Assembly (NCBI GenBank): GCA_900546315.1
Contig: URCP01000002.1
Coordinates: 19,314 to 83,313, forward strand
DNA: 64,000 nucleotides
From: an uncultured Eubacteriales bacterium
Lineage (GTDB): Bacteria; Bacillota; Clostridia; Oscillospirales; CAG-272
Direction: 5' to 3'
Position 1 is the stretch's first letter, and each line of letters begins with the position of its first letter. Below, in pieces: positions 2,601 through 55,227 of this stretch. Both the position numbers and the translations under genes were made by a program. The notes under the pieces were generated by a model. That model was given only the letters and a program-made list of their open reading frames with translations, was not told the origin of the DNA and ran no database searches.

Positions 2601-4898
2601 ATGAAAAAGGCGTTCATCTCTATTGTTTTAGCGGTACTTACTCTCTTCCCTCTTGCCGCGTGCGGCACGAAAGCTCCGGAAAAATCTAAAGTTGACCACG
2701 TATACAAGGCGAATGACCTCGGACTCGGAAATGTCCGCGCGGACAATATTCTCGCAAACGGGAAAACTGTCGTTGTCAGCGGGGACGAAATCCTCGACGC
2801 GGACAGTGATTCCTCACAGTATGTGGTCATAAGCGTTGATATCTCGTCCGGAACAGATAAAATAAACCCGGTGAAGCGTGTGATCGACCTTGCCGCGAAC
2901 GAAGCGGTCAGCGGTACGGCGCTCGGGGCGGACGGTAATGTGCTTCTGCTGAAGTCTGAAACGGACGGCAACGGGAAAATGACCTACTCGCTTGACCGTC
3001 TCGGCGACGATATTGTGACGGTCTGCGCTGACGTGAACTCACTCATCGAATCTGACGGGAGTGATTCCATGTTTACCGGTAAGAATACCTATTTCGGATA
3101 TCTGGCGGTCGATGGGGACGGGAAGATATATATCGGATGTGACTATGCCATCGCCGTGCTCGACCGGGAATGTAATAAGCTGTTTGAAATATCTGTCCCC
3201 GGGCGGATGGAGATGCTTTCGTCGACCGCTGACGGGCGGGTCTGGGCGTCCTTCCGCGACGATTCGTATGATGAGCAGATACGCTTCATCGATACCGAGA
3301 CGAAAAAGTTCGGTGATACGCTGAATCTTCCCGATATGAGCGTGTATACCAACGCGTATCTTTTCGTCGGTCCGGGCTATGATATCTACATAAAGGACGA
3401 CGACGCTGTACAAGGCTGGAATTCCGACGCGGATGAACCGGTCGAGCTGCTGAATTTCATGAACTCGGATTTTGCCGGAAGTTCGGTGCGCTACGCGGCG
3501 ATAATCGATGCTGACACGATGGTGTTCGGGTGCATCGACACCTTCGGCACTGAGCCTGAATACGGCGTATATCTGATGACGCGTATTCCGGATGACGAGA
3601 TACCGGAGAAGGTGGTCATCAGCGTCGCTTACAACTACAGCGGATATCCGATGCTCCGCAAGGACGTCATAAGCTTCAACCGCCAGAGCGACGAATACCG
3701 TGTCGAACTTGTTGATTACAGCCGGTTTGAGCCGATCGACGAATACGACTATGACAACAGCAAACTGCTCGAAAGAGAGCTTATGTCCGGCGTAGCACCG
3801 GATATAGTTGTGACGACTGATTTCAACGCCGCCGACGAGTGGATGGACAAGGGCGCTTTTGCTGACCTTTCGATATACATCGATGACGATTTTGAGAGCG
3901 GATACTTCGACAGTGTGATTTCGATGTGCGAGGACGGAAAGGGACGGATGCACCAGTTCATCACAGATTTCACACCGAAATTTGTGGCGGCGAACAAAGA
4001 TTATGTTGAGCCCGATCGCTGGGACATCGACGGCTTCATTGACTTTGCGTCAGACCTCCCTGAGGGAAAATTCCTGCTTGAGGCCACGTATCCGATGGTG
4101 ATGACAGACTTCACGTTATGCGCGTCGCTCGATTCTTTCATTGATTCTCAGGAATACGAGTGTGATTTTGACACGCCGACATTCCGGAGGCTTTTTGAAT
4201 ATTTGAAAAATGTTGAAAAAGTGTCTTACCGCGACACGCTCTCAGGCGATGATCTCAGGGACTACGAGCTTGACGCGTGGAAGCCTTATCGTGACGGAGA
4301 TGTTCTGCTGATCGAGACCGGAGCGTCTGATATACGTTCATATCTGCAAGTCATGACCTATTTCGGCAAGAACAAGACCAAATTCGTTGGCTACCCGACA
4401 AGTAGTCATAACGGCGCGCTGATCAAGCCCCGCACGAGCTTCGCGATAAATGAGAAGAGCGGATTCAAGGATGTCGCGTGGGAATTCATCCGCTTCGTCG
4501 CGGAAAACGGAGCGTCGGGCGGTAATTCATTCCCGGCGAATATCGGGCGTTTCGACAAGCTCTGCGCGGCAGAACTCGGGAAATACTACTATTACGAGGG
4601 CAGCGTGAGCATGAAATTCACGACGACTGATGAGAGTGAAGTCATGTCTGAACTGAAGGAAATGATCAGAAAAGGTTACTATACCGGCAATGGCGTGCTT
4701 GTAAAGGCGGATGAAGCTTGTATTGCTTCGCTGAAAGACCTCATAACCGGAGCGGGCGCGTACCCGGATGCCGGATTCAGGATCATAGGAACGATCTACG
4801 AGGAATCGCAGATGTATTTCGAGGGCGATAAATCGCTCGACGACACCGTTAAGATAATTCAGGACAGAGTGTCGACTTATCTCGCGGAGAGGGAATAA
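2601..4898 (+). CDS. large lipoprotein: N-terminal unknown domain fused to a C-terminal ABC-type solute-binding-like domain
   Basis: The ATG at 2601 gives MKKAFISIVLAVLTLFPLAACGTK (lipobox LAAC) with GGAAAGGA upstream. The C-terminal roughly 430 aa (VVISVAYNYSGYP...) resembles family-1 extracellular solute-binding proteins. The first roughly 330 aa are unassigned. Confidence 0.6.
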   Translation: MKKAFISIVLAVLTLFPLAACGTKAPEKSKVDHVYKANDLGLGNVRADNILANGKTVVVSGDEILDADSDSSQYVVISVDISSGTDKINPVKRVIDLAANEAVSGTALGADGNVLLLKSETDGNGKMTYSLDRLGDDIVTVCADVNSLIESDGSDSMFTGKNTYFGYLAVDGDGKIYIGCDYAIAVLDRECNKLFEISVPGRMEMLSSTADGRVWASFRDDSYDEQIRFIDTETKKFGDTLNLPDMSVYTNAYLFVGPGYDIYIKDDDAVQGWNSDADEPVELLNFMNSDFAGSSVRYAAIIDADTMVFGCIDTFGTEPEYGVYLMTRIPDDEIPEKVVISVAYNYSGYPMLRKDVISFNRQSDEYRVELVDYSRFEPIDEYDYDNSKLLERELMSGVAPDIVVTTDFNAADEWMDKGAFADLSIYIDDDFESGYFDSVISMCEDGKGRMHQFITDFTPKFVAANKDYVEPDRWDIDGFIDFASDLPEGKFLLEATYPMVMTDFTLCASLDSFIDSQEYECDFDTPTFRRLFEYLKNVEKVSYRDTLSGDDLRDYELDAWKPYRDGDVLLIETGASDIRSYLQVMTYFGKNKTKFVGYPTSSHNGALIKPRTSFAINEKSGFKDVAWEFIRFVAENGASGGNSFPANIGRFDKLCAAELGKYYYYEGSVSMKFTTTDESEVMSELKEMIRKGYYTGNGVLVKADEACIASLKDLITGAGAYPDAGFRIIGTIYEESQMYFEGDKSLDDTVKIIQDRVSTYLAERE

Positions 4899-4901
4899 AC
4901 A

Positions 4902-6195: not shown

Positions 6196-7701
6196 TTACC
6201 CTATTGATGACAGATCATCAAGCAGCTTATCGATCTGTTTTCTGAAAGTCTTCTCTTTCTTCGCGTATGTCGACGACAGATTGCCAGATTTGAATGCGTC
6301 CCAGAGTATCTGATTGCCGCCGAGGCCGAATACGTCTGAAAGGTCATACAGCATCGAACTCTTTATCACGTCCAGCATCTCGATCGCCTTGTCGTCTCGG
6401 AGGCGCTTTCCTTTGACTGTCGTCTCGTAATACGCCGGAAGCAGCGTCTGGTGCGACAGCCAAGCCGAATACTCGAGCACCGCGCCGACACGCTCCATAT
6501 CCCCGGCGCACACCGGCACCGCGAAGATCAGAGCGAATAAATCGATCTTATGGTGATAATTCTCCTGATTCTCGTCATACTTCGGATTCGGGACAAGACC
6601 GAAATCCTGCTTCATATCGCGGAAGCATTCCATCGAGGCGATGCCGCTCTGATAGAACAGAAAATGTCCGTCAGCGAAGAGTGCGCGCGGGTAATCATAC
6701 TCATTCGCGTATCCGGTCGTGTCTCCCATACCGAAGAGCTCTTCGCTCGAAATGGCGCAGTCGGTTCCGGTCAGGACAGCGGAGCACTTTGTTATCATGT
6801 CCTGTACCTTTTCGGTCATGATATTGGGAATGATCACGTTTTCCGTATCCTTTACGGCGAGGCTCACACCCGTGCCCGCGACGAGATACACGAAAGTGCC
6901 GTTGTAACTGTCGTCGGTGAGCATCCCATATCTGTCGTTCTGGTCAAAGACCGAGTCGCCGTTGAGGTCTTCCGACACCGCGGCTGTCATCTCGAGGACC
7001 TTGTCTATCGTCCACTTATTGTTCTCAACAAGCTGATACGGGTCCTCGAGACCGTACTCATCGATGATGCCCTGATTGAAGTACATGAACCGCGCCGTCT
7101 CGAGATTTCCCATCGAGATGTCGCTCGGCATCAGATACAGTCTACCCTCTATCGTAAGCTCATCCGCCGCGTTTTTGTCCCACCAGTCAGCCGTCAGGTC
7201 CGCATAGTCAAGATCGAGCATATTATAGAGACCTCCCTCGCGCGCGAGTCCGCTGAGCGTCGAGCGCATACTCGAAATGACGTCGATTCCGTCGTCGCCT
7301 GATTGGATATATCCGCGCGCGAGCTTTTCGAGCTCACCTGCCCATCCGCTTTCCCACGCCGGATAAAGAGCTTTTATCTTTATGTTGAACTTTTCCTCGA
7401 CCTGCAGGTTGCGTTTATATATCGCGTCATTCACCGGCTCGCCGTTCTCTTCCTCGGCGTAGACATACTTTTCCATGTAGCTGCTCACGTTTCCGCCGCG
7501 TATGAGATATGTGAATTCCGCTCCTCCGTAATCGAGTTCCGGAATATCCGGCTCAGGGATTGACGATACGGTTGTTCCGGTATCTGTCTCGCTTGTGTCT
7601 TCGGTGCCGGATGTTGTGTCTGTTTCGCCGCTCTGACCGGCGCAGGAAATAAGAATTGTACAGAACAGCATCGCCGCGATAAGTTGTCTGTAGTGTTTCA
7701 T
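6196..7701 (-). CDS. extracellular solute-binding lipoprotein (ABC family-1 SBP type)
   Basis: I chose the start at 7701: MKHYRQLIAAMLFCTILISCAGQ (lipobox). The annotated longer ORF would overlap the upstream gene. Family motifs shared with six paralogs in this window include IYKRNLQVEEKFNIKIKALY and DFGLVPNPKYDENQENY. Confidence 0.8.
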   Translation of the reverse strand: MKHYRQLIAAMLFCTILISCAGQSGETDTTSGTEDTSETDTGTTVSSIPEPDIPELDYGGAEFTYLIRGGNVSSYMEKYVYAEEENGEPVNDAIYKRNLQVEEKFNIKIKALYPAWESGWAGELEKLARGYIQSGDDGIDVISSMRSTLSGLAREGGLYNMLDLDYADLTADWWDKNAADELTIEGRLYLMPSDISMGNLETARFMYFNQGIIDEYGLEDPYQLVENNKWTIDKVLEMTAAVSEDLNGDSVFDQNDRYGMLTDDSYNGTFVYLVAGTGVSLAVKDTENVIIPNIMTEKVQDMITKCSAVLTGTDCAISSEELFGMGDTTGYANEYDYPRALFADGHFLFYQSGIASMECFRDMKQDFGLVPNPKYDENQENYHHKIDLFALIFAVPVCAGDMERVGAVLEYSAWLSHQTLLPAYYETTVKGKRLRDDKAIEMLDVIKSSMLYDLSDVFGLGGNQILWDAFKSGNLSSTYAKKEKTFRKQIDKLLDDLSSIG

Positions 7702-7757: not shown

Positions 7758-9017
7758 TTACTTGCTGTCGCCGGAAAATCTGCGCTCCAGCGCCTCTTTG
7801 AATTTCCCGAGCGACACCTCGGACGGCGCGTAGTCCGGACGCGAACAGCACGGAATGTTTGGCGGTGTGCCGTCCGGCGTCCAGAATGGGTTCGCGTTGT
7901 CATTCTCGTATTTCAGACAGTCTGACTCGAGCGAGAAGTCCGGAATGTCGAACGGGGCACCGTCGGCGAGCAGACTTCTGTGAGAGAGGATGGCGACCGA
8001 CGCGAGCCTTGTCGCGAACAGCTCATCCATCTCAGGCTTTGCCCCGGTGCGTATCGATTCGAAGAATTTGCGGATGACGAAAAAGTCTCCGCCGCCGTGC
8101 CCGGCTTTTTTGATAAGCTCCGCGTCCTTGTCGGTGAGTTCAGGGTAATATGAGTTCTCGGCGTTCATACCTTCCGGGATCTCCCAGTCGTTGTATCTGA
8201 GCATGATCTTTCCGTCGGTGCCGCGCAGATTTTCTATCTGCCCCTTGGTTCCGCAGACGCGGTAGGAGTTCTCATGCGCGCCGAACGCGGCGCATCCGGT
8301 CACACGGAAGACCGACGCGTCGTCGTTCCGCGTCATGATGATCGCCGCGCGGTCGGCGCAGAATGACGCCGAGACGCAGTCATCCGGACGCGGTATGAAC
8401 ACCGGCATCGCGGTCACGCGGACAGGCTTCGAGCCGGTAGCGTAGCAGAGCGGTCCGAGCGAGTGAGTTATATAATATGTCGCCGGGAGGAAGTTCCTCC
8501 AGTGCCGCACATCGTCTCGGAGAGAGGCGGAATATTCGGCGTTATACAGATCCGCCGGGTGGTTGTACTCGCCCTCTGCGAACATCACCTGACCGAGAGT
8601 TCCTTCTTGGTATACACGGCGGATCTCCTGATTGAACAGCATGAACGGATAGTTTTCCGCGAGCATATAGAATGCCCCGGACTTTCTTGCCGCCCGGACG
8701 AGAGCCACTCCCTCCGCCATCGTGCCGTTCGACGTGCATTCGCTGAGGACGTGAATGCCTTTTTCGAGCGCCTTTATCGCGTATGGCGCGTGCTCGTTGA
8801 AATAGTTCGCGAGGAATACGGCGTCCATCGGATGCTCTATGAACTCGTCAAAGTTGGTGTAGCCTGCCGTCGTACCGCCGAGCTTGCCGGCGGCGGCGTC
8901 CACAAAACGCTGCGCTTTGTCGCAGACGGCGACGATCTCACCGTTGTTTGCCAGTATGTTGTCGAAGTAGTATGCTCCTCGCTGAAGTCCGAATACTCCG
9001 ATACGGATTGTTTTCAT
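7758..9017 (-). CDS. Gfo/Idh/MocA family oxidoreductase
   Basis: MKTIRIGVFGLQRGAYYFDNILANNGEIVAVCDK is an N-terminal Rossmann fold. GGAGGC SD precedes the ATG at 9017. Clear paralog of 52494-53747 (shared HWRN...Y.THSLGP motif). Confidence 0.8.
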   Translation of the reverse strand: MKTIRIGVFGLQRGAYYFDNILANNGEIVAVCDKAQRFVDAAAGKLGGTTAGYTNFDEFIEHPMDAVFLANYFNEHAPYAIKALEKGIHVLSECTSNGTMAEGVALVRAARKSGAFYMLAENYPFMLFNQEIRRVYQEGTLGQVMFAEGEYNHPADLYNAEYSASLRDDVRHWRNFLPATYYITHSLGPLCYATGSKPVRVTAMPVFIPRPDDCVSASFCADRAAIIMTRNDDASVFRVTGCAAFGAHENSYRVCGTKGQIENLRGTDGKIMLRYNDWEIPEGMNAENSYYPELTDKDAELIKKAGHGGGDFFVIRKFFESIRTGAKPEMDELFATRLASVAILSHRSLLADGAPFDIPDFSLESDCLKYENDNANPFWTPDGTPPNIPCCSRPDYAPSEVSLGKFKEALERRFSGDSK

Positions 9018-9080
9018 GGTGTTGCCTCCCAAAATTATATTTGTTCCCGATATTTCATCGGGTCATAAACATATCTGCGC

Positions 9081-9938
9081 TCAGTCAATCAGAACGAGCG
9101 CGAGCATCCCGGCGAAAGCCAGCGCGACCGAAACGAGCTCCCTCGCCCGCGGTTTTTTTGACGTGAAGAAGCAGAGTGCCGTCGACATTATCATGACTCC
9201 GCCGGTCACGAACGGATACTGCGCGGATGCCGGAAGGTGCGCGAGCGATATCAGGAGCAGGAGATTCGCTATGCATCCGAGTATGCCGTTGCCCATAGTC
9301 CCGACGATCATTCCGGCTGACAATTTTCTTTTTTCGCCGCTCCGGAAAAATGGCAGCAGCGCACAGGCGATGACCACCGTCGACGCCGCGCTGAGAACCG
9401 AGTATCCCGCGGCGGATGTTTTCTCAAACGGCGACGCCTGAAATATTTTCGACAGTACGCCCGACATGCCGTTCAGCGCGAAAACTCCGATATAATATCC
9501 GGTTCCGGAACGGCACTCATCCCTCTTTATCGTGACGCAGAGCGCCGCGGTGATGAACAGCAGACACACTATCTTCCCGGCTCTCAGGGGTTCATCAAAG
9601 AAGATGATTCCGGCGGCGAACGGAAGGACCATCCCTCCGAGCATCGAAAACACCGAGTACAGCGATAGATTTATTTTTCCGAGTGCCGTCAGACTGCAAA
9701 ACGTGAAGCTTATTGAATTCACCGCCGACAGTGCCGCCATCAGAAGCGAAAACGCGGTGAATTCGAAACGCAGTCCGTTCATGATGAACAGCACCGCCAT
9801 CCCGGCGAGACTGCTCAGCGCGGAAAACTCGAGGGTCGCGCCGGTCCCGCTTCCGCGGGCGTTCCGGTATATGTTTTTGAAGAAGAACTGTATGCTGAAC
9901 ATCGCGACAGCGGCGGTTATCATTCCGTAATAGATCAT
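9081..9938 (-). CDS. DMT superfamily (EamA/GRP-like) 10-TM permease, subfamily A
   Basis: I chose the start at 9938 (MIYYGMITAAVAMF, AAGGGGA SD). About 285 aa and hydrophobic throughout. The C-terminus LAHLPASAQYPFVTGGVMIMSTALCFFTSKKP is nearly identical in pattern to 55279-56127. Confidence 0.7.
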   Translation of the reverse strand: MIYYGMITAAVAMFSIQFFFKNIYRNARGSGTGATLEFSALSSLAGMAVLFIMNGLRFEFTAFSLLMAALSAVNSISFTFCSLTALGKINLSLYSVFSMLGGMVLPFAAGIIFFDEPLRAGKIVCLLFITAALCVTIKRDECRSGTGYYIGVFALNGMSGVLSKIFQASPFEKTSAAGYSVLSAASTVVIACALLPFFRSGEKRKLSAGMIVGTMGNGILGCIANLLLLISLAHLPASAQYPFVTGGVMIMSTALCFFTSKKPRARELVSVALAFAGMLALVLID

Positions 9939-9959
9939 CCCGTTATCCCCTTTGAAACC

Positions 9960-9988
9960 ATTATACCATAACCGCGCCACCAAGGCAA
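9960..9988 (-). promoter_or_regulatory. putative sigma-A promoter for the DMT-Gfo-SBP unit
   Basis: The minus strand reads TTGCCT-N17-TATAAT with an extended -10 (TGGTATAAT), about 20 nt upstream of the 9938 start. Confidence 0.5.
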
Positions 9989-10029
9989 TAAAAAAATCCC
10001 ACCCGATCATGGAATTTTTCTCCATATTG

Positions 10030-10058
10030 TTGAAAACCTCTGCCGGATATGGTATAAT
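10030..10058 (+). promoter_or_regulatory. putative sigma-A promoter for the divergent AraC gene
   Basis: TTGAAA-N17-TATAAT with an extended -10 (TGGTATAAT), 49 nt upstream of the ATG at 10107. Confidence 0.5.
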
Positions 10059-10106
10059 AAAAAAGCCGGGCAACATTGGCCCGGACAAAAGCAAAGGAGA
10101 ACTATT

Positions 10107-10916
10107 ATGAGGCAGACAGGTCCCAACATATGTAAATATGTTACCAGACAGTCGGACGAGCAGCTGACGACGATAAATTTCGTGCTTGAACAGAACGCCG
10201 CGGTCGACGGTATAAAACAGCTGCGGTCATGCGATATAATGTACCTGATGGTCGGCGGAAGCGGGCGGCTCGTAACCGATACGCAGAGCTTCGAGCTCAC
10301 GGCGGGAACCCTGTTCTTCACGTTCACCGGGGTTCCGTACACCATCATAGATACCGACAACATGGTATATATGTATATAAGCTACCGCGGGCGGCGCGCG
10401 TCCGAGCTTTACGGTCAGTTCGACATATCGCAGTCGAGGTGTGTATTTCCCGGGTACTCTGGTCTCGTGTCCTTCTGGAAGAACGCTATCGGGCGTGCTG
10501 CCGAGCGGAACCTTGATCTTATAAGCGAGAGCGTTCTCCTCTATTCCTTCTCCAGAATGACAAAGCCGGACGGACAGAGCAGGGAGAATCTGACTGAGAA
10601 GATGATCCATATGATAGAGACGGAGTTCACGGACAGCGGCTTCACCCTCGACTCGTGCGCCGAGAAACTTGGATATAACGCGAAGTATATCTCACGGATA
10701 TTCAGACATGGGGCAGGCGTCACTTTTTCGGAATATCTCAGGGACGCGCGCATAAGACACGCGATATTCCTGATTGAGCAGGGGGTCAGTGTTGTCAAGA
10801 ATGTCGCGATTCTCTCGGGATATAGTGACCCTCTGTATTTTTCGAATGTGTTTCACCAATCGGTCGGAGTCCCTCCGAGCGAATATATCCTGCGCCACGG
10901 CAAACAGGATGATTGA
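10107..10916 (+). CDS. AraC family transcriptional regulator (N-terminal cupin-like sensor, C-terminal HTH)
   Basis: The C-terminus LGYNAKYISRIFRHGAGVTFSEYLRDARIRHAIFLIEQG...ILSGYSDPLYFSNVFHQSVGVPPSEY is a canonical AraC HTH pair. AAAGGAGA SD upstream. Confidence 0.85.
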   Translation: MRQTGPNICKYVTRQSDEQLTTINFVLEQNAAVDGIKQLRSCDIMYLMVGGSGRLVTDTQSFELTAGTLFFTFTGVPYTIIDTDNMVYMYISYRGRRASELYGQFDISQSRCVFPGYSGLVSFWKNAIGRAAERNLDLISESVLLYSFSRMTKPDGQSRENLTEKMIHMIETEFTDSGFTLDSCAEKLGYNAKYISRIFRHGAGVTFSEYLRDARIRHAIFLIEQGVSVVKNVAILSGYSDPLYFSNVFHQSVGVPPSEYILRHGKQDD

Positions 10917-10921: not shown

Positions 10922-12724
10922 TCACGTCTCCGCTGTCTTATAATACTTAGCCTGCGCCATATAAAACGAATTGTAATCCGGGCAGGTCTTCATCAGTTCC
11001 TCATGCTTTCCGCTCGCCGCGATGTGGTTATCTTTAATGAAAACGACGGTGTCCGCGAGAGCGGCGCTCAGCAGGCGGTGCGACACGTAGAATATCATCC
11101 GCCCGGCGGAGATCGACTGGAGCAGCCCGAAGAACTCGTCCTCGGCAAGCGGGTCGAGCGCCGACGACGGCTCGTCGAGCAGCAATATCCGCGCGTCCCT
11201 GAAAAGCGCCCGGGCGATTGACAGTCTCTGGAGCTGACCGCCGGACATTATGACGCCGTTCTCGTCGAATTCCTTTCCAAGCTGAGTGTCGACGCCGTCC
11301 GGCAGACCGGCTATGTAATCGCCCATCCCGAGGTCGGAGAGTATCGACGTTATTTTTTCTTTCTGTTCCGCGCTGCCGTCGTATCTGTCGAGCGCGATGT
11401 TTTCCGCTATGCTCATCGCGAAGACGTGCGTCTGCTGGAACACCGACGAGAACATTCCGCGGTACGCGTCAATGTCAAAATCACGTATCGGCATGCCGTT
11501 ATAGGTTATCCTGCCGTCTGTGACGTCGTACAGACGACCTATCAGGTTGAGCAGTGTCGTCTTTCCCGCGCCGTTCGCGCCGATGACGGAGTATACCTTT
11601 CCGAGATGGAATGAGTAATCAATATTTCTGAGCACCTCCGGACCGTCGTCGCTGTAGCGGAACGACACGTTCTCAAGTCTTATCTCCGCCGTGTCAGAGG
11701 CAGGGATTTCCTTTATAAGCCCGTCGCCCTTCCAGCTCTCGATGTTCGATTTCAACCCCATGAAGTCGACCCACGCGCGGATATACCTCGATTCGTTCGT
11801 GAAATACGTGAAAAAGTCCATGACGCTCTTTATCGACGCCGTCAGCTGTCCCGTCGCCTGAAAGCCCTGTGTGAACATACCGATAGTGATCTTCCCGGCG
11901 AGCACGCGGAACGCGAGATAGAGGTATATCGCGTAATCCTTTATTATCGACAATATTTCGACCGGGGCAGTCACGCCCGCGACGTAGTTGTTCAGCTTCT
12001 GTTCATTCGCGAGCAGCTCGCCGTACTTTTTCTCGTGCTTCGCGACGAGCCAGTCGTGTATGCGGAAGAAGCGTATCTCCTTGCGGAAGTCCTTGTTGCT
12101 GAAGACCCCGGCGAAGTAGTTTTCCGCGCGGAACAGCGTTTCGGAGTACATATGATTCTCAAACACGCGCTTTTCGATATGAGCCGACACAATAACCGAC
12201 GCGACCGCGAAGACGACCGATATCGGGACAAGCCAGAGATTCACCTCGGCGAGGATAATGATAGTCGTTATAAGCATCGGTATCGCGGAAAAAAGCCTCA
12301 TGACGCGGTTTGTGACCTGATTTATAGTCCCGCGGTTGTTGACCTCCGCCGCGAGAGCCGACAGGTCATGCACGGCGGGAGATTCCACCTGCGCCATGTC
12401 GAGCTCCGCCATCTTTGAGGTGCGCTCAATCCGCACGTGGTTCTGGAGGTGCGACAGACGGAAGCCGAGTGTCTCGGTTATCTTCTCGACGACACAGATA
12501 AATATCGCCGATATTGCCATAACGGCGACGCATATGATGATTTTCGTGATATTCCGGTCCCCGACGAACTCATCGAGGATTATCTTCGGGAGCCAGAGCA
12601 TCAGCACGGCCGCCGCCGCGTTGCATATCTGCGAAAAGACCGAGAGCATGAAATACCCCGGGTCAAGCCGGAAGAGCCGGGATATATATTTGAATACAAG
12701 TGAGACTTTTCCGAAAAATATCAT
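10922..12724 (-). CDS. ABC transporter, fused permease/ATP-binding protein (exporter type)
   Basis: N-terminal 6-TM domain. Walker A GANGAGKTT, signature SGGQLQRLSIARAL, Walker B ILLLDEPSSALD. The ATG at 12724 with GGGAGAA SD is preferred over the TTG at 12730. Confidence 0.85.
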   Translation of the reverse strand: MIFFGKVSLVFKYISRLFRLDPGYFMLSVFSQICNAAAAVLMLWLPKIILDEFVGDRNITKIIICVAVMAISAIFICVVEKITETLGFRLSHLQNHVRIERTSKMAELDMAQVESPAVHDLSALAAEVNNRGTINQVTNRVMRLFSAIPMLITTIIILAEVNLWLVPISVVFAVASVIVSAHIEKRVFENHMYSETLFRAENYFAGVFSNKDFRKEIRFFRIHDWLVAKHEKKYGELLANEQKLNNYVAGVTAPVEILSIIKDYAIYLYLAFRVLAGKITIGMFTQGFQATGQLTASIKSVMDFFTYFTNESRYIRAWVDFMGLKSNIESWKGDGLIKEIPASDTAEIRLENVSFRYSDDGPEVLRNIDYSFHLGKVYSVIGANGAGKTTLLNLIGRLYDVTDGRITYNGMPIRDFDIDAYRGMFSSVFQQTHVFAMSIAENIALDRYDGSAEQKEKITSILSDLGMGDYIAGLPDGVDTQLGKEFDENGVIMSGGQLQRLSIARALFRDARILLLDEPSSALDPLAEDEFFGLLQSISAGRMIFYVSHRLLSAALADTVVFIKDNHIAASGKHEELMKTCPDYNSFYMAQAKYYKTAET

Positions 12725-12758
12725 TGTCAATTCTCCCGTCGGCGATTGATAAAACCAG

Positions 12759-13538
12759 TTATTCCGCCGCTTTCACAAGCGAATGAAAATCAAGGGGATC
12801 CTCCGCCTTTTGGCACAGTTCGATCAGCGCGTCGTGGCCCTTGCGGACATCAAAACAGGCAACCCTGGCGTTTCCGAGCGTGGAATAGCTCATAACCCCT
12901 TTTTTGTCAAGATAATCCCCGAGCAGCGGGAAATCAACTGAGCTCCAATAAAAACTCGTATTCATATGCAGAAGCTCGTAACGTCTGCCGTCGGCGTCTG
13001 TCGCTACCGCGTCAAAATAAAGATCCGGGTTATCAGGAAACGGGTTGACTTCCTCATCAATCGAGTGCATATAAGTGTTGCGCTCAAGACCGACCCCGAT
13101 CAGCAGTACTCTGGCGTCTTCATCATAAAATCTGCCCCACACCCCATCAACAGGGGTTCTCGAGCGGGTGTTTTCTTCGCCGGTCACATAATCCTTCGCG
13201 CGCTTTCCGAAGACCGCGACCGAGTGAGTCGGATGCAGCGAGCGGATAGCGTTGCCGCGTCTGAACGTCTCTTTCGCGCAGATCTGCGGAAATACCCCGA
13301 TATTCGGGACAGATTCGCGGACATCGTATACCGGGTTATCGCGGTTGATCACTGCCCATGTATGAGTCGGAACAATAAGAAGCCCTTCAGGAAGCAATTC
13401 TGTATAGTAATCGAGCAGTCCTTCTGCTCCGCCCTCAATTCCGCCGATGCTTTTCAGCGAGGTATGGACAGCGACCGTGCTGTCAGGGCATATTCCGAGT
13501 TCGTCAAACATTTTTTCTACGTCTTGCCTGTTTATCAT
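12759..13538 (-). CDS. aminoglycoside 3-N-acetyltransferase (AAC(3)/Antibiotic_NAT) family protein
   Basis: The 259-aa protein begins MINRQDVEKMFDELGICPDSTVAVHTSLKSIGGIEGGAEGLLDYY...LIVPTHTW, which is the characteristic AAC(3) N-terminal pattern. Confidence 0.7.
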   Translation of the reverse strand: MINRQDVEKMFDELGICPDSTVAVHTSLKSIGGIEGGAEGLLDYYTELLPEGLLIVPTHTWAVINRDNPVYDVRESVPNIGVFPQICAKETFRRGNAIRSLHPTHSVAVFGKRAKDYVTGEENTRSRTPVDGVWGRFYDEDARVLLIGVGLERNTYMHSIDEEVNPFPDNPDLYFDAVATDADGRRYELLHMNTSFYWSSVDFPLLGDYLDKKGVMSYSTLGNARVACFDVRKGHDALIELCQKAEDPLDFHSLVKAAE

Positions 13539-13584
13539 AATATTATCTCCATTATTGATCGGCGTTCATTCCGGCTCCGCTGCA

Positions 13585-15833: not shown

Positions 15834-16014
15834 GCCGAAACCCCACGCCTGAATAAGGAAAGCCTTGCATTTTACAGATAAAAAATACCGATTATTCCGC
15901 CGCCGAGCGCCGCTGCCAAGCGACCGGCGCAGTGTGCCGCGAGTTTCATTTATGATTATACCTTTCTACTGTGCTGCAATGGCAAAAGTGTATACTGGAT
16001 CGTAATTAAAGATG

Positions 16015-16046
16015 AGTCCCGTACATTGATAAGAATGTGCGGGACT
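16015..16046 (-). terminator. probable terminator of the LPXTG gene
   Basis: 13-bp stem AGTCCCGTACATT / AATGTGCGGGACT (one G-U pair) with a 6-nt loop, 8 nt after the stop at 16054. The minus strand then reads TCTTTAATT. Confidence 0.5.
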
Positions 16047-16053
16047 GCACCAT

Positions 16054-32998: not shown

Positions 32999-33009
32999 TA
33001 TCCGCCGCC

Positions 33010-43371: not shown

Positions 43372-43470
43372 TTAATATGCAGGAGATACACCTTCCTCGT
43401 TTGCGGCCTCCATCTTGAACTGCTCGAGGGCAGCCTTTGCTTCGGGGACAACGATCTTGTTGGTAGACAT
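43372..43470 (-). pseudogene. N-terminal fragment of an alpha/beta-type small acid-soluble spore protein
   Basis: Own translation: MSTNKIVVPEAKAALEQFKMEAANEEGVSPAY* (32 aa) with a GGAGAA SD. It matches the SASP N-terminal half (..LVPEAK.AL.Q.K.E.A.E.G.), but the conserved GSVGGEM.K half is absent in all frames. Confidence 0.55.
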
Positions 43471-45907: not shown

Positions 45908-47376
45908 ATGAAAAAGAAAGACTCATATCACTTCTCCTCGCGATGCTGATTGCGGGGAATCTCATGGCCTCCTGCGGGAACGACAGCGGAACGACAAACG
46001 ACACGACAGACACGCAGACCGACACCGAATCCGGGAGCGCAGAGGAATCGACCGGTCCGTCCTTCCCGGAAATGGACATGGACGGGAAGGAATTCACCAT
46101 TTTCGCCGAGGGCTGGGCGAGCTTCGATCCTCTCTCGATCAACGATATAATGGCGGAGGAGCTGACCGGTGATTCTCTGAACGACGCCATATACAACCGG
46201 AATGTAAAGGTTGAGAAGCAGTATAACTGCAAAGTCTCATTTCTCGAAGTTGGTGACACAATCGCCGCTCATAATCAGCTAAAGCAGTCGGTCATGGCGG
46301 CTGACCAGTCGTATGACATCGCGATCATCCGTACCTACAACTATTTGTCTGCGATAACAAACGGACTTGTCATGGATATCTCCGACATACCGAATACCGA
46401 CCACACACAGCCGTGGTGGGATCAGAATTCTCTCGACTCGCTGTCCGTCGGCGGCAAGGCTTACGCTATATGCAGTGACATCACGATGAACGACGAGAAG
46501 AGCATCTGGTGCGTGTTCTTCAACAAAAAGATGATAGACGACTACAACCTCGACGACCCGAACAAGCTCGTCGCGGACGGTACGTGGACCTATGACAAGC
46601 TCTTCACAATGGCTGAGACCGTGTCGGCTGACCTCGACGGGAACGACAAGCGCGACGAGAAAGACAGATACGGCATCGGATATATAGGCGACAGCTCAAC
46701 CCCGATCTGCATGAGCGTCGGCATAAAGATCGCCGAGAAGAACAACGAGGACCTGCCGGAGTTCTCGTTCGACAAGGGCGAAAACATTTCGAGATATCTT
46801 GAAATATTCACGAAGCTCTACAACGACGATATCGCCTACGACTGGCACACGCGTCAGGGCTTTGCGGGCGAGACGGATATCTTCACGAACAGTCAGGCGC
46901 TGTTCTGTCTCGGCGGCGTGTATTACGCTTCTCTCCTGCGCGATATGAAGGACGATTTCGGAATCATCCCCTACCCGAAGTATGACGAGACGCAGACTGA
47001 GTATATCTCGTCGGCAAGCTCGAACTTCCTGAGCGTCTGCGCGGTTCCGGTGACGAACGACGACCTCGAGAACACCGGCGCGTTCATGGAATACTACGCG
47101 TATCTCGGCTATACGGACATCCGCCCGCAGTTCTATGATGTCCTGCTTCAGGGCAAGGTCGCGAGGGACGACGAGTCGGTGAAGATGCTTGACACACTGT
47201 TCGGCACGGTGACATATGACCTCGGCGGAATATTCGATTTCGGCAGATTCGGAAGCGAAATCCTCGAGATGTGCAAAAAGGAAGACCTCAATATTGCCTC
47301 GAAAGTTGAGAAGAAGAGAAAGTCAATCAATAATGATATCGACAAGCTTATAAAGGCAGTAACCGAAACCGAATGA
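45908..47376 (+). CDS. extracellular solute-binding lipoprotein with its signal peptide disrupted by a -1 frameshift in a homopolymer run
   Basis: The ORF-track start at 45943 (MLIAGNLMASCGN) lacks a charged n-region. The ATG at 45908 is out of frame. Adding one A to the A5 run at 45911-45915 gives MKKERLISLLLAMLIAGNLMASCGN (canonical lipobox signal). Family motifs IYNRNVKVEKQYNCKVSFL and DFGIIPYPKYDETQTEY. Confidence 0.75.
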
Positions 47377-48292: not shown

Positions 48293-49075
48293 TCATTTTG
48301 TGTCAGACAGCAGGAACGGCAGCTCCGGCATGGCGCCTGTTTCGATGACGACCGCGAGCATTTCCGCGAATCCCTTCGGGGCGCGTATCTGATACTGCAT
48401 ATGGTTATATCCGTCAAAGACCGGGAAGTTCCCGTCCGGGTACGCTTTCATGACATCCGGACGGTACTTGAAATGCTCCTCCGCGTTTCCGAACTCAAAG
48501 AACGTCCGGCGCTGGAGCTCGGCGGACAGCGGCGGGAATGGCTTGTCCTCAAGGCTGTCGGCAAGCTGACGGCGCAGATTCCCGTATCTCAGCGCCTTCC
48601 CCGCTGCGATGAAATACGGTTTGATCGACTCGTCATCACACCACATTATTTTTTTCAGAGTCCCGCCTTTTGACAGGTAAAGGCTCTTTATCGCGAGGTA
48701 CAGAAAAGGCGCCATAATTCTTCTAGTCACCAGACCAATCCGCGCGAACTGTCCTCCGTCGAAGAAGACGTGATCCACCGGTATTCCGGATCCTGTCAGA
48801 AACGCCATCGCGAGATCCGCGCCGATTGAGGACGCGACAACTAGCGCGAGCCGCTTCACGTCTTTTTCACGCAGAAAATTCTCAATCTGCCTGACCTCAT
48901 CCTCCTTGCCGAGATATTTCTGCCCTTCACAGTAAACGGTGGAGGTCGGAAGGATGCAGAAGTACCTTTCAGCGAGACATTTAGCGACAGGCGCACTGCT
49001 CGCCCCGGTCACACCCATCGCGTGGAAGAACAGTATCGCCGGAGACGATACATTGCCATATGTTTCAAACAGCAT
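48293..49075 (-). CDS. alpha/beta hydrolase fold protein
   Basis: PAILFFHAMGVTG (oxyanion region) and RLALVVASSIGADLA (nucleophile-elbow-like). 260 aa. Confidence 0.6.
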   Translation of the reverse strand: MLFETYGNVSSPAILFFHAMGVTGASSAPVAKCLAERYFCILPTSTVYCEGQKYLGKEDEVRQIENFLREKDVKRLALVVASSIGADLAMAFLTGSGIPVDHVFFDGGQFARIGLVTRRIMAPFLYLAIKSLYLSKGGTLKKIMWCDDESIKPYFIAAGKALRYGNLRRQLADSLEDKPFPPLSAELQRRTFFEFGNAEEHFKYRPDVMKAYPDGNFPVFDGYNHMQYQIRAPKGFAEMLAVVIETGAMPELPFLLSDTK

Positions 49076-51293: not shown

Positions 51294-52316
51294 TCACGAG
51301 AAGACCGACTCAACGATTACTCGCTTATTGTCCGGATATACCCGGTTTTTCAGATACCCGAAAGCGAGATCGACCGCCGTGAATCCCTGATTGTATATAT
51401 CCTGCGTGCAGCGGTACGCGATGGTGCCGTCCGGAGTCCACTGTCCCTGCTCCGGTCGTATATCGTGGCAGAAGCATCTGACCTTGTCTCCGAGCCCGGA
51501 TTTCTTCAGCGCGAGCGAAAGAGCCGGAAGACCCATCGGAACATACAGAAGCGATTCCCGATCGCCCGGAACAACATCGGTCATGAGTGACGCCAGATAT
51601 GACGGCAATGTCTTCGGCGAATACATTCTCTCAGGGTCAAGCGGAAGCGTTACCGGGCTGTAACCGCTCATAGCGTCGCGGAATCCGTTTATTCTCTCCG
51701 ATATGTTGAAGTTCGACCCAAGCGACAGCATGAAAATATCGGGGCGATACGCGAGGTTTCTTATATATTTCATCGCGTGCTCCGCCATCCTCCGTCCGTC
51801 GCCGTATGAGTCCGCGCCGACGTAAAACGCGTTTTGTATATCGGCGTACTCCGAGAGCAGGATGACGAACCGCGACGTGTCCGCGCAAAGCGCCGAGACG
51901 CGCTTCTTCACGGCGTCCGTCGCGGCGGCGGCGATGATCACGCAGCGCGCGTCCATATATTCGGCCTCGTCGAGGTAGGACAGAACAGTCTCCTCATCGT
52001 GCAGACGCGAGTAGGCGTTGCATTTCACGACAGATTCCGCTCCGGGACCGTGTCTCGTGATCGCGTCGCCGATCCCGCGCCACATCTCCTGCCAGAAAAA
52101 CGACGGCATATCCGGGATTATGCAGTATACCGAGCAGGTCCCGGTCGGGCGGAGCTCGTTTATGCCCTTTGCCGCGCGAAGAACCCGCTGCCTTGTCTCG
52201 GTGTTGACCCCGAAACAGTGGCGGAGAACCTTCGAAACGGTAGAGCGGCTGACATCAAGCTCAGAAGCAAGCCGCGCGAGAGCCGTCTCATCATATCGGT
52301 TGTCTGACGTTTGCAT
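51294..52316 (-). CDS. LacI family transcriptional regulator
   Basis: Start at 52316 with an AGGAGG SD. The HTH is LARLASELDVSRSTVSKVLRH, followed by a periplasmic-binding-protein-like sugar sensor domain. Confidence 0.8.
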   Translation of the reverse strand: MQTSDNRYDETALARLASELDVSRSTVSKVLRHCFGVNTETRQRVLRAAKGINELRPTGTCSVYCIIPDMPSFFWQEMWRGIGDAITRHGPGAESVVKCNAYSRLHDEETVLSYLDEAEYMDARCVIIAAAATDAVKKRVSALCADTSRFVILLSEYADIQNAFYVGADSYGDGRRMAEHAMKYIRNLAYRPDIFMLSLGSNFNISERINGFRDAMSGYSPVTLPLDPERMYSPKTLPSYLASLMTDVVPGDRESLLYVPMGLPALSLALKKSGLGDKVRCFCHDIRPEQGQWTPDGTIAYRCTQDIYNQGFTAVDLAFGYLKNRVYPDNKRVIVESVFS

Positions 52317-52390
52317 ACGCTGAAGTCCTCCTTCTTGCGTTATCGGGATTATGACCAAAAATCATATGGCGTTTTTGGCTATTCAGCACA

Positions 52391-52493: not shown

Positions 52494-53747
52494 ATGTCTG
52501 AAAAACTCAGAATAGGCGTCTTCGGCGGTTATCGCGGAAGTTCGATGATACAGGTGCTGCTGCATCACCCGGATGCGGAGCTCGTCGCGGTCTGCGACAA
52601 ATATCAGCCGCTGCTCGACAAGGCAAAGGCGGAAGCGGAGGCGGCGGGGCTTAATATCCGCGTCTTCAACAATTTCGACGATTTTCTCGCGTATGACATG
52701 GACGCGGTCGTCCTCGCGAACTACGCGACAGAGCACGCGACCTTCGCCATCCGCTGCCTCCGCGCCGGAAAGCACGTCATGAGCGAGGTGCTCCCGAGCG
52801 AGACTATGGCGCAAGCCGTCGAACTGATCGAAACGGTCGAGGAGACCGGGCTCGTCTATACCTACGCGGAAAACTACTGCTATATGGACCTGACCTTCGA
52901 GATGTGGAGAAAATACCGCGAGGGCGAAATCGGAGACGTCACTTACGCGGAGTGCGAGTATGTGCATGACTGCGCGTCCTGCTGGCTCGACATCACGTAT
53001 GGCGACCCGAACCACTGGAGAAATCACCTTTGCCCGACCTTCTACTGCACGCACTCGCTCGGTCCGATCATGACTATAACCGGTCGCCGTCCGGTGCAGG
53101 TCGTCGGCTTCGAGAACCCGCCGATCGAGGAATTCTATCACCTCGGTCACGCGGGAGGGCACGCGTCCGGCATCGAGATGGTGACGCTCGACAACGGCGC
53201 GATTGTCAAGAGCATTCACGGTCCGCTGAAGCTCGAACCGGCTCACACCGATTACAAGGTCTACGCGACGAAGGGATATCTTGGCACATCAGGGAACAAT
53301 GTCCGCCTGTACAAGGAGGGTCCTCAGACCTGTCAGGGCGAGAACACGTATTACGAGCCGGAGAAGTTCGTCTCCCCCGACCTCGCGAAGAACAGCGGCA
53401 TGGCGTCGCACGGCGGAAGCGACTTCTACCCGACGCACTTCTTCATCGAGAAGATACTCGGCAGACCGGACGGAAAATGGGCGATCGACGTATATCAGGC
53501 GGTCGACATGGGAATCTGCGGAATACTCGCGTTCAGGTCGATCCTCACCGGGAACAAACCGATGAAGGTTCCGGATCTGAGAGACCCCGCGCAGCGCGAC
53601 GAGTGGAGACACGACAACGCCTGCACAAACGCCGCCGTCGCCGGAGATCAGGTCCTGCCCTGCTCATCCTACCCGGAGAGACCGGTTCCGGCGGAGGAAG
53701 CGGCAGCGAACCGCGCGAAGTGGCTTGAGACACATTCCGAAGACTGA
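52494..53747 (+). CDS. Gfo/Idh/MocA family oxidoreductase
   Basis: MSEKLRIGVFGGYRGSSMIQVLLHHPDAELVAVCDK (Rossmann fold). HWRNHLCPTFYCTHSLGP is shared with 7758-9017. AAAGGAGA SD. Confidence 0.8.
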   Translation: MSEKLRIGVFGGYRGSSMIQVLLHHPDAELVAVCDKYQPLLDKAKAEAEAAGLNIRVFNNFDDFLAYDMDAVVLANYATEHATFAIRCLRAGKHVMSEVLPSETMAQAVELIETVEETGLVYTYAENYCYMDLTFEMWRKYREGEIGDVTYAECEYVHDCASCWLDITYGDPNHWRNHLCPTFYCTHSLGPIMTITGRRPVQVVGFENPPIEEFYHLGHAGGHASGIEMVTLDNGAIVKSIHGPLKLEPAHTDYKVYATKGYLGTSGNNVRLYKEGPQTCQGENTYYEPEKFVSPDLAKNSGMASHGGSDFYPTHFFIEKILGRPDGKWAIDVYQAVDMGICGILAFRSILTGNKPMKVPDLRDPAQRDEWRHDNACTNAAVAGDQVLPCSSYPERPVPAEEAAANRAKWLETHSED

Positions 53748-53772
53748 TATACCCGAAAGGAGAACCATTAAT

Positions 53773-55227
53773 ATGAAACCGCGGAAGAACAGACTGTATG
53801 CCGCCATTCTTATCTCCCTGCTCACACTGAGCTCCTGCGGCGGCACAATCAGCGACACAGAGACAGCCGAAACAAACAATGACACGACAGATGAAGTCAC
53901 GACTGAAGCGGCAGAAAAACCGGAAATACCGGAAAACACGAACTACGAAGGGTACACCTTCCGTATACTGACCCGACCAGGAATGCGCCTCGACGAGGTA
54001 TACGCGGAGGAAGCCAACGGAGATATACTATCGGATTCAATCCATAAGCGCAACAGAGAGGTCGAGGATAAGCTCGGGATGAAGTTCGATTTCATCGTCA
54101 GCAGCAGCGACTACGAGACAGACGGATTGAGTCCGATCCTCGCCGGTGAGGATGAATATGACGCGATATCGACCTGCGGACGGTTAAGCTTTGTTTACGC
54201 GCAGAACAAGGCTGTTATGAATATATTCGACGTCCCATATATCGACCTCGACAAGAGCTGGTGGAATGAGGACATCGCCGACAGTCTCTCGATAAACGAA
54301 AAGCTGTACGGCGTTTCAGGCGATATCTCATACGCGACGCTTGATTCCTCGTTCGGTGTGGTATTCAATAAGAAGCTTTTCGATGACTACGGGCTTGAGT
54401 ACCCGTATGAGATGGTGCTCGACGGCACGTGGGTGTATGATAAGTTTGAGACATACGCGCGAAGCATCGGACAGGATCTGAACGTGGACGGGAAGATGGA
54501 TATCGCCGACGATCTCTTCGGCTACGGCGCGCATATGTGGATGGGCGGCGTCGAGGCGCTCTACAGTACCGGCAGCCGTGTCGTCACGACCGACTCCGAA
54601 GGGTATCCGAGGCTTTCGTTCTACAACGAAAAAGTCGTCGATATATACGACAGGTATACGGCGCTCGTAAGAAGCTCAGAGTGCTGCCACTTACAGCCAA
54701 TGGGCGACGACTATCTGCGCGCGTTCTGTTCCGGGCGGGTTGGCATGGCGGACACAAACATACGCAGTATGATTGAGGGGCATTTCCGCGACGCGGATGT
54801 CGATTACGGATTCGTTCCGTTCCCGAAGTATGACGAAAACGTCGAAAAGTACTACTCGTTCGTCGACGCAGGTCAGAGTCTCTGGGTTGTGCCGGTGACC
54901 GTCTCTGACTCCTCCCGCACAGGCGTCGTGCTTGAGACGATGGCATATCTCGGTCAGAAGTATATAATCCCGGCTTATTACGACGTCACACTCCAGAAAA
55001 AGTATATGAGAGACGAGATGTCAATAGAAATGCTTGAGATTGTAAAGGATGGAGCAACATTCGACTTAGGATACTACAACAGCGAGCAGTTCGGCGGCAG
55101 CCTGGCGAACCCGGGAGCCGATTTGATGGCGAACAAGACGATGACCATAACATCGCTCTACAACAAATACGAGCAGTCGGTGAATACGCTCATCGACAAG
55201 TCGATGATATTCTACCTTGAGGACTGA
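53773..55227 (+). CDS. extracellular solute-binding lipoprotein (ABC family-1 SBP type)
   Basis: Start at 53773 gives MKPRKNRLYAAILISLLTLSSCGG (lipobox) with an AAAGGAGA SD. Family motifs IHKRNREVEDKLGMKFDFI and DYGFVPFPKYDENVEKY. Confidence 0.8.
   Translation: MKPRKNRLYAAILISLLTLSSCGGTISDTETAETNNDTTDEVTTEAAEKPEIPENTNYEGYTFRILTRPGMRLDEVYAEEANGDILSDSIHKRNREVEDKLGMKFDFIVSSSDYETDGLSPILAGEDEYDAISTCGRLSFVYAQNKAVMNIFDVPYIDLDKSWWNEDIADSLSINEKLYGVSGDISYATLDSSFGVVFNKKLFDDYGLEYPYEMVLDGTWVYDKFETYARSIGQDLNVDGKMDIADDLFGYGAHMWMGGVEALYSTGSRVVTTDSEGYPRLSFYNEKVVDIYDRYTALVRSSECCHLQPMGDDYLRAFCSGRVGMADTNIRSMIEGHFRDADVDYGFVPFPKYDENVEKYYSFVDAGQSLWVVPVTVSDSSRTGVVLETMAYLGQKYIIPAYYDVTLQKKYMRDEMSIEMLEIVKDGATFDLGYYNSEQFGGSLANPGADLMANKTMTITSLYNKYEQSVNTLIDKSMIFYLED

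Follow-up and report, generated by a model that had tools for sequence, protein, structure and literature searches.

Orphan CUT1-type substrate-binding lipoproteins in permease-free sugar-utilisation cassettes of uncultured Clostridia

The best points of comparison for the proteins considered here are the substrate-binding proteins (SBPs) of the CUT1 (TC 3.A.1.1) importers, which belong to the ATP-binding cassette (ABC) transporters and include MalEFGK2, RafEFG/MsmEFGK and AbnEFJ. We are concerned with a stretch of 64,000 nucleotides, called the window below, from an uncultured Eubacteriales bacterium (GTDB lineage Bacteria; Bacillota; Clostridia; Oscillospirales; CAG-272; contig URCP01000002.1 of assembly GCA_900546315.1, positions 19,314 to 83,313), in which genes for seven paralogous SBPs are found in small sugar-utilisation cassettes. 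These proteins are like the CUT1 SBPs in fold and in being tethered as lipoproteins. The msm, raf and abn operons likewise hold cytoplasmic enzymes of the glycoside hydrolase (GH) families GH32, GH36 and GH43, along with local regulators. The difference is that CUT1 importers have two BPD_transp_1 permeases encoded beside the SBP, as in the Enterococcus locus L140 used below as a control, whereas this arrangement is found for 0 of the 199 members of the present family. The family proteins are, in addition, ~60-100 residues longer than SBPs of the MalE/RafE type, and the Pfam models SBP_bac_1/8 reach them marginally or miss them.

There are precedents for SBP genes that lie apart from those of the membrane components. 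E. coli MppA, acting with OppBCDF, is reported to be of this kind (PMC3173086) and the LT-SBP homologues of Bifidobacterium are proposed to be (PMC8110962), additional SBPs widening the specificity of a translocon in both cases. MppA and LT-SBP are, however, single orphans whose home system is known and belongs to the same family; here every sampled member of a large family is an orphan, seven paralogues occur in one window and the home system was not found in the ~1.4 Mb covered. Another comparison is with the Bug (TctC-like) proteins of Bordetella, which greatly outnumber their membrane components. They too represent a large expansion of SBP paralogues, with functions mostly unassigned according to PMC11452294, but they are of another SBP fold class, serve the secondary carrier TctAB, reside in a Gram-negative periplasm and bind carboxylates rather than glycans.

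Secondary carriers that depend on SBPs are also well described. In the TRAP, TTT and TAXI-GltS systems (the last proposed recently from genomic context, PMC12344293) the SBP is co-operonic with the carrier, as it is in four of the cassettes here. Those systems use DctP, TctC or TAXI SBPs, whereas the SBPs of the window are of the ABC/CUT1 type and the carrier is a member of the drug/metabolite transporter (DMT) superfamily; moreover, neither SBP-DMT fusion nor translational coupling was seen here, and orthologues of the DMTs occur in operons that lack an SBP. Sugar porters are known within the DMT superfamily itself, namely the GRP family (PF06800) and RhaT, and the DMTs of the window are similarly polytopic, about 285 aa long and placed in sugar-utilisation operons. 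Some distant homologues of one of them, MP_B, also match PF06800; MP_B, MP_E and MP_G themselves, however, match the generic EamA model only, near its threshold. In the literature we found neither this SBP family nor a system pairing SBP with DMT described. Orphan SBPs as such, and translocons served by several SBPs, are already known; what appears to be new is that all 199 sampled cases of a very large CUT1-like family are orphans. Its embedding in minimal cassettes of regulator and enzyme, and the repeated co-operonic placement of DMTs in one lineage, also appear to be undescribed.

Open reading frame (ORF) listings and Pfam scans describe the window from ~2.6 to 56 kb as a run of such cassettes, followed by a type I-C cas operon. 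The seven SBPs, of 477-501 aa each, had been picked out in an earlier, sequence-only reading of the window, and this count is borne out at or near the positions then given. SBP_A (6196-7701, minus strand), SBP_B (19352-20794, minus) and SBP_C (23917-25377, plus) are recognised by leader, alignment and six-frame scan; SBP_D (29694-31154, minus) by Pfam, leader and alignment; SBP_E (36985-38434, minus), which is split by a frameshift, by leader, tblastn and the repaired frame; and SBP_G (53773-55227, plus) by leader, alignment and a structural model. SBP_F lies on the plus strand and ends at 47376. Its start had been placed at 45908; the gene is indeed present, but the ATG there is in another frame and the ORF of the body begins at 45943. 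Nearly full-length pairwise alignments of SBP_A, B, C, D, E and G show 27-33% identity, and the family alignment gives 30% identity between SBP_F and SBP_G. The motifs RN..VE.K and DFG.(I/V/L)P.PKYDE.Q..Y are common to the paralogues, and all seven have a hydrophobic leader with a cysteine at about residue 20-23. The claim that every one of them combines a lipobox with these motifs thus holds for the presence of both elements; the leader is intact in SBP_A, B, C, D and G but disrupted by frameshifts in SBP_E and SBP_F. An eighth family member survives as a remnant. The pseudogene proposed at 35692-36470 is real and very decayed, with many stop codons, and tblastn recovers fragments of it only at 35781-36100 (minus strand), where DFGILPFPKYD is kept.

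Pfam matches differ among these proteins. At the 27-bit cut-off of SBP_bac_1/8, SBP_D, the SBP_E fragment and SBP_F score 27.4-32.3 bits, SBP_A falls below it at 24.7 bits, and SBP_B, SBP_C and SBP_G give no match; no NCBIfam model matches the family. SBP_G was modelled with AlphaFold2 from an alignment of 14 sequences; the mean pLDDT is 85.6 and the pTM 0.83, with disorder confined to the leader and linker. When this model was compared with the PDB by Foldseek, the top 50 matches were all CUT1-type (MalE-like) SBPs or MBP fusion constructs, at E values of about 1e-14 to 1e-12. Most of them are sugar binders, which include Lmo0181, YesO, AbnE, GacH, RafE, UgpB, CbpB and cyclodextrin- and maltodextrin-binding proteins, and two of these are also matched by the family profile at the level of sequence (AbnE, 7.9e-10; Lmo0181, 1.7e-8). 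The predicted structure thus indicates that the family has the two-lobed CUT1-type SBP fold of the MalE/UgpB class; the possibility, raised earlier, that the proteins might prove not to be SBP-like once their structure was predicted is not what the model shows.

The search for importer genes used hidden Markov models (HMMs) of the SBP family, of AraC, of the window's DMTs, of CUT1 permeases (seeds MalFG, UgpAE and YcjOP) and of MalK/UgpC, applied in all six frames. A tblastn search of a plasmid collection returned distant canonical SBPs only, and supplied the positive control L140, a canonical Enterococcus lactis plasmid locus of the order SBP-permease-permease, which scored 149-172 bits with the same HMMs. 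Among the stop-to-stop ORFs of at least 70 aa in the window there is no BPD_transp_1 permease and no MalK/MsmX-type ATPase. Its sole ABC protein is an MsbA/HlyB-like exporter-type half transporter (10922-12730, minus strand). Both observations agree with the sequence-only reading, which had found no ABC importer membrane or ATPase gene near the SBPs and a single, exporter-type ABC protein. The window also has no DctQM, TctAB or GltS gene. Permease genes just outside the cassettes would have offered a simple explanation; they were found neither in the window nor in the 8.9 kb before its position 1, known from a 99.98% identical contig. No CUT1 importer is encoded in that flank; it has genes for three ABC proteins of the exporter type, for a BPD_transp_2 protein accompanied by a 265-aa ATPase, and for an Rrf2 regulator and a PALP enzyme. 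ORFs of 260-320 aa beside SBPs were considered as missed permeases and ruled out, being EamA/DMT, MerR, TIM-barrel, LCM methyltransferase or Cas proteins. The same applies to the ORF at 48293-49075, which has no Pfam match and one predicted transmembrane (TM) segment, and is not BPD_transp_1.

The question was then taken to the family as a whole. Context loci came from look-ups of SBP homologues, from species-representative genomes (37 loci), from JGI metagenomes (80 loci) and from DMT look-ups (~12 loci), and the family survey comprises 121 non-redundant loci, the window included, with ~1.40 Mb of DNA and 199 family genes. No sugar-type ABC permease lies within 3 kb of any of the seven SBP genes of the window or of any of the 199 family genes, and there is none anywhere in the ~1.40 Mb. 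The only BPD_transp_1 ORFs of the survey are potB/potC (L023 and L034, named by NCBIfam) and metI (L049); the matches to the CUT1 HMMs in these three loci were accordingly rejected as sugar importers, since they belong to potABCD and metNIQ. The nucleotide-binding domain (NBD) matches of the survey include no MsmX-like ATPase, the best of them being PotA, OppF-like and exporter NBDs. The orphan state is therefore the rule of this SBP family, and the premise that its members normally adjoin two permease genes was wrong; it is true only of CUT1 SBPs in general.

The family is large. A search of 1.84 billion representatives with its profile gives 6,850 clusters, defined at 50% identity, with E<=1e-30, from Clostridia of the gut, rumen, termites and digesters, and the named members are all from uncultured Clostridia. 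The closest match among the GTDB representative genomes scanned is 53-54% identical. Exact or 98-99% identical copies of the window's proteins fall in clusters with 150-290 members each, drawn from gut assemblies of humans and animals; in that of SBP_G (at least 90% identical) one member is labelled '[Candidatus Flemingibacterium sp.]' and others 'Eubacteriales bacterium'. When every ORF within 4 kb of the 199 SBP genes was clustered, the recurrent neighbours were AraC regulators (22 of the 121 loci), GFO_IDH_MocA oxidoreductases (11), an unknown 350-aa protein (8), GH2 enzymes (7) and an 800-aa FAD oxidoreductase (5). A module of regulator, SBP and catabolic enzyme thus recurs over about 120 loci of uncultured Clostridia, while no membrane protein is a neighbour in more than five loci, the most frequent being Rnf subunits and MatE. 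SBP genes frequently occur in tandem arrays without an intervening transporter gene, four SBPs in the 14 kb of L100 (285-14080) and three each in L084 and L018, and an AraC-SBP-SBP-AraC arrangement in L003; such arrays suggest dozens of family copies per genome.

Each SBP of the window belongs to one cassette, named by the same letter. In cassette A an AraC-family regulator (10107-10916, plus) is divergent from an operon of MP_A, a GFO/IDH/MocA oxidoreductase with a GH109-like C-terminus (7758-9032, minus) and SBP_A. Cassette B has the order MerR-MP_B-SBP_B-GH28-like; the end of the MerR/GyrI-like regulator gene (21758-22573, minus) overlaps the start of MP_B by 4 nt, an arrangement that recurs in L056 and L058, and orthologous operons are known for the GH28-like beta-helix enzyme (18218-19336, minus). 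In cassette C an AraC regulator (22835-23638, minus) is divergent from SBP_C, a cytoplasmic glycyl-radical enzyme of 717 aa directly 3' of it (25397-27550, plus; PFL-like and Gly_radical domains) and a 666-aa protein. Cassette D runs from an AraC regulator (34491-35426, minus) through a GH43 and a GLAA-B-like beta-helix enzyme (together 31226-34482, minus) to SBP_D. Cassette E has a PocR-AraC regulator (42261-43166, plus) divergent from a GH36 alpha-galactosidase-type enzyme (40239-42101, minus), MP_E, a xylose-isomerase-like TIM-barrel enzyme (38458-39312, minus) and SBP_E. Cassette F consists of a DeoR C-terminal-domain protein (43787-44326, plus), a GH32 fructosidase-type enzyme (44342-45877, plus) and SBP_F. 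In cassette G a LacI regulator (51294-52358, minus) is divergent from a GFO/IDH/MocA oxidoreductase (52494-53747, plus), SBP_G and MP_G. Gaps between genes within the cassettes amount to tens of bases only, and cassettes C, D and F contain no membrane-protein gene at all. No cassette enzyme carries a signal peptide, the GH32, GH36, GH43, GH28-like, GFO, glycyl-radical and GLAA-B-like enzymes included; their substrates must therefore be imported, which favours a role of the SBPs in transport. Saccharide binding by the SBPs is putative and is suggested by the neighbouring enzymes, from which fructans or sucrose would be examples of ligands for the GH32 cassette, and alpha-galactosides for the GH36 cassette.

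The remaining cassettes A, B, E and G, that is, four of the seven, pair SBP and DMT in one operon. The carriers are MP_A (9081-10076, minus; polytopic, 331 aa in the gene call), MP_B (20898-21761, minus; nine predicted TM segments), MP_E (39344-40210, minus; 31% identical to MP_B) and MP_G (55279-56127, plus; 51 nt 3' of SBP_G). With Pfam's EamA model, for which the cut-off is 28.2 bits, MP_B scores 35.1, MP_E 49.6 and MP_G 29.2, and each of the three has two EamA-matched stretches in a scan at relaxed threshold. MP_A has no Pfam EamA match and is classed by its 55% identity to MP_G. A crude hydropathy scan gives the window's DMTs seven to nine TM segments, and the four can be assigned, as predicted from their sequences, to the EamA-like carriers of the DMT superfamily. 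Junctions in these operons are 4-nt overlaps or gaps of about 25-105 nt. A module of GFO/GH109-like protein, SBP and DMT occurs twice (7758-10076 and 52494-56127), in the orders MP-GFO-SBP and GFO-SBP-MP. Between the modules of cassettes A and G the DMTs are 55% identical and the SBPs 33%, from which it seems that the three genes were duplicated together and that the SBP has since diverged the most rapidly.

How might SBPs without permeases support the import of glycans? The explanation that we favour, at roughly even confidence, is that they act as modules of specificity under the control of regulators and dock on an ABC translocon whose genes lie elsewhere and which is common to many SBPs, in the manner of spokes on a hub. 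The seven proteins would be surface-tethered CUT1-type oligosaccharide-binding lipoproteins, interchangeable with respect to specificity; each would share a small operon with cytoplasmic enzymes that process glycans, and a one-component regulator of its own (AraC, PocR-AraC, LacI or MerR) would set when that SBP is displayed. The loaded SBP would then dock on a distant translocon of two BPD_transp_1 permeases and an MsmX/MsmK-type ATPase, while the DMTs of four cassettes would be autonomous secondary transporters of a related small solute or product, rather than obligate partners of the SBPs. Observation provides the SBP fold, the lipoprotein leaders, the operons with enzymes lacking signal peptides, the family-wide lack of nearby permeases and the autonomy of the DMTs in relatives; the existence of the distant CUT1 translocon and the docking on it are what we infer. 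GH32 and GH36 cassettes usually go with CUT1 systems of the msmEFGK/rafEFG type. We prefer a shared translocon because of the CUT1-type fold, the need for import, the want of a nearby partner and the precedents for orphan SBPs. In the Opp system, MppA is reported to be served by membrane components encoded elsewhere (PMC3173086); for LT-SBP of Bifidobacterium the use of such components has been proposed (PMC8110962); and shared ATPases of the MsmK type provide a further precedent (PMC4519317). Certain points weigh against this explanation. The proposed translocon is unseen, there being neither a sugar-type BPD_transp_1 protein nor an MsmX-like ATPase in the ~1.4 Mb around the 199 family genes; if each genome had one member adjacent to the translocon, a few cases would be predicted in 199, and there were zero; and because four cassettes own a DMT, a second, ABC-based route of uptake is not strictly needed in them. 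Three alternatives had been listed at the outset, namely a distant shared translocon, other carriers such as the DMTs, and a function in capture or sensing. They are still the right candidates, although their weights have shifted, as the enzymes without signal peptides favour transport and the DMTs are autonomous.

One alternative is that the SBPs pass their ligands to a secondary carrier, here the co-operonic DMT/EamA protein, which would amount to a new kind of SBP-assisted secondary transporter. The linkage of SBP and DMT in the window is striking, but we regard this alternative as distinctly unlikely. The coupling might be facultative, with high-affinity capture placed on top of an autonomous carrier. 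In its favour, the association is found in four of seven cassettes in three gene orders and with two DMT subfamilies, and every DMT gene of the window (4/4) falls inside an SBP cassette. It is also kept in relatives at 64% DMT identity: for the MP_B type, L056 has MerR-DMT-SBP-GH28-like in the same order as the window, with the SBP between the DMT and GH genes, and for the MP_G type, L053 retains an AraC regulator divergent from a GFO-SBP-DMT module. At greater distance the linkage is gone. For the MP_B type, AraC- or MerR-DMT-GH28-like operons at 52% and 49% identity (L057-L059) have no SBP; for the MP_G type, the DMT is solitary at 58%, 50% and 49% identity (L050-L052), and at 52% (L049) two family SBPs lie 1.5 kb upstream with cotJB and catalase genes between, and are not co-operonic. 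Since the DMT orthologues keep their operon without the SBP, the DMTs are evidently autonomous, which argues against obligate SBP-DMT coupling; the presence of the SBP in L056 and its absence at 49-52% identity look like recruitment of an SBP into pre-existing carrier operons in the window's lineage. Linkage of SBP and carrier across lineages, for which conservation at 64% but not at 49-58% identity is the result, thus does not extend far. Furthermore, none of the family genes in the loci selected by SBP (L001-L041 and L060-L139) has a window-type DMT within 3 kb, and just three SBP genes outside the window do, all in loci picked with DMT queries. Cassettes C, D and F manage without a DMT, and no SBP-DMT fusion occurs among the matches listed, which have lengths of 444-561 aa or about 283 aa. 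DMT carriers are not known to be of the elevator type. The SBP-linked carriers found so far are, according to PMC12344293, although the same work shows that a new pair of SBP and secondary carrier, TAXI-GltS, can be inferred from similar context evidence. A more general form of the idea, to which we attach a similarly small probability, is that the family is fully uncoupled from CUT1 permeases, in genomes without a matching BPD_transp_1 translocon, and that glycans are delivered to another class of carrier, here the co-operonic DMT/EamA proteins.

The SBPs might instead have lost their role in transport and serve in surface capture or sensing of glycans, for example by presenting ligands to membrane kinases or by holding oligosaccharides at the surface. 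We think this unlikely, if somewhat less so than delivery to a DMT. None of the 199 family members has a nearby transporter partner, and multi-TM histidine kinases (~640-665 aa, HisKA and HATPase_c domains, 5-6 predicted TM segments) are encoded about 1 kb from SBPs in three MAGs, L020 (261-2180), L023 (2587-4497) and L034 (2916-4910), perhaps a sign that SBP and kinase form a sensing pair in some lineages. SBP-like lipoproteins with roles other than transport have been described; examples are LpqZ/FecB of mycobacteria and, in Pseudomonas, sensor kinases activated by SBPs. Such kinases are, however, scarce as neighbours (3/121 loci), and the AraC, LacI and MerR regulators that adjoin the SBPs are soluble one-component proteins with cytoplasmic ligand domains (AraC_binding, PocR, Peripla_BP_4 and GyrI-like), so that what they sense is an imported ligand. 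As all cassette enzymes are cytoplasmic, a route of import is needed regardless, and the window encodes no secreted glycoside hydrolase that would profit from capture at the surface. It is still less probable that the SBPs dock on a type of membrane partner not yet recognised as an importer; candidates would be an ABC half transporter with the exporter fold or some uncharacterised polytopic protein. Exporter-type ABC genes do adjoin family SBPs in L038 (SBP-SBP-ABC-ABC), L075, L100 and L127, and one is near cassette A of the window; unannotated polytopic proteins also flank SBPs, in L008 and L012 (409 and 375 aa) and in L011 and L037 (249 aa). Four or five adjacencies per 199 genes are nevertheless about what one would expect, by a rough estimate, from how densely such ABC genes occur in Clostridia at large, and the half transporter was on this ground rejected as a hidden partner; no unknown membrane protein recurs in more than 3-5 loci. 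Nor does an apparent ABC-SBP fusion of 1,116 aa in L127 (64-3411) help: its NBD is truncated before the H-loop and is followed by a read-through of ~25 codons into the SBP's own methionine and leader, and this ORF is a truncated gene or a chimeric contig rather than a real fusion. An intact homologue of its ABC half transporter is a separate gene in L075, 70 nt upstream of an SBP. Finally, permeases beside the SBPs could have been lost by misassembly or binning, since the window comes from metagenome assemblies and two of its SBP genes have homopolymer frameshifts. We consider the chance of this very slight. ENA contigs from different samples match the window at 99.9-100% identity and its gene order is kept in four further assemblies, which makes an artefact very unlikely; the gene order recurs in several independent assemblies at 90-100% identity; the permease-free layout holds in 121 loci, which derive from numerous studies and assemblers and in some cases from contigs of 180-770 kb; and the gaps within the cassettes measure only tens of bases.

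These alternatives differ in their consequences. Predictions of the sugars that gut Firmicutes can take up usually rest on the number of complete ABC operons, a count that would miss the present system. If many SBPs use one translocon, the substrate range of a strain would be set by the SBP genes that it carries and expresses; the cassettes would then be minimal, portable loci for glycan utilisation, and annotation based on permeases would under-count the usable glycans. Should the partner prove to be something other than an ABC transporter, the family would stand for a new mode of transport. In either case the family is open to test, since its ligand-binding proteins come paired with enzymes whose specificity can be predicted, such as GH32, GH36, GH43 and GH2.

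The frameshifts in SBP_E and SBP_F both concern runs of adenines. SBP_E has a +1 frameshift in the A6 run at 38131-38136, where A5 would be in frame; with one A removed it reads ...RNRGVEEKYNVKL..., in agreement with the family consensus. Gene calls on a 99.88% identical contig (L054) show SBP_E split in the same way. SBP_F is one base short: its run at 45911-45915 is A5 (a -1 frameshift), whereas A6 would keep the frame, and one added A would give the in-frame leader MKKERLISLLLAMLIAGNLMASCG. The ATG at 45908 is preceded by a good ribosome-binding site, yet the frame that it opens is not that of the SBP_F body, and as assembled SBP_F has no proper signal peptide; the A5 run is the same in a second, 100% identical assembly. 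These changes could reflect slipped-strand on/off switching, fixed pseudogenisation or a common assembly error.

One further lipoprotein of the window has an SBP-like part. LP766 (2601-4898, plus) has the lipobox LAAC and was expected to be a lipoprotein of about 766 aa with an SBP-like C-terminus, as it proved to be: it has 765 aa, and residues 403-648 of the ORF match SBP_bac_8 (E=2.8e-13). The N-terminal ~400 aa have no significant Pfam match (the best are DUF5074, E=0.0016, below its cut-off, and Reg_prop, E=0.068). LP766 is of another family than the seven paralogues, and its length is kept at 765-768 aa in other assemblies. Downstream of it, three assemblies hold three extra genes, a TetR regulator included, that are lacking in the window and in L048.

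Other genes of the window may be noted briefly. The part of cassette C from 25397 to 29609 consists of the glycyl-radical enzyme gene followed by that of the 666-aa protein, which has no Pfam or NCBIfam match; no radical-SAM activase was found among the window ORFs of at least 100 aa that were scanned with Pfam. The region between cassettes A and B (12759-17832) is occupied by unrelated genes. An aminoglycoside N-acetyltransferase of the AAC(3) type is encoded at 12759-13538; at 13585-15833 there follow a 154-aa protein and a membrane protein of 595 aa with 11 TM segments, both without a family match, and at 16054-17832 a secreted protein with a SpaA domain. Beyond cassette G, a complete-looking type I-C cas operon (56679-63180) heads toward the end of the window, with Cas3 (56679-59039), Cas5d (59029-59820), Csd1/Cas8c (59786-61624), Cas7 (61626-62540) and Cas4 (62518-63180); cas1, cas2 and the array would fall past position 64000. 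Between the PocR-AraC regulator gene of cassette E and the first gene of cassette F there is, on the minus strand (43372-43470), a gene for a small acid-soluble spore protein of 32 aa (PF00269 in the gene calls of a matching contig), an indication that the organism forms spores.

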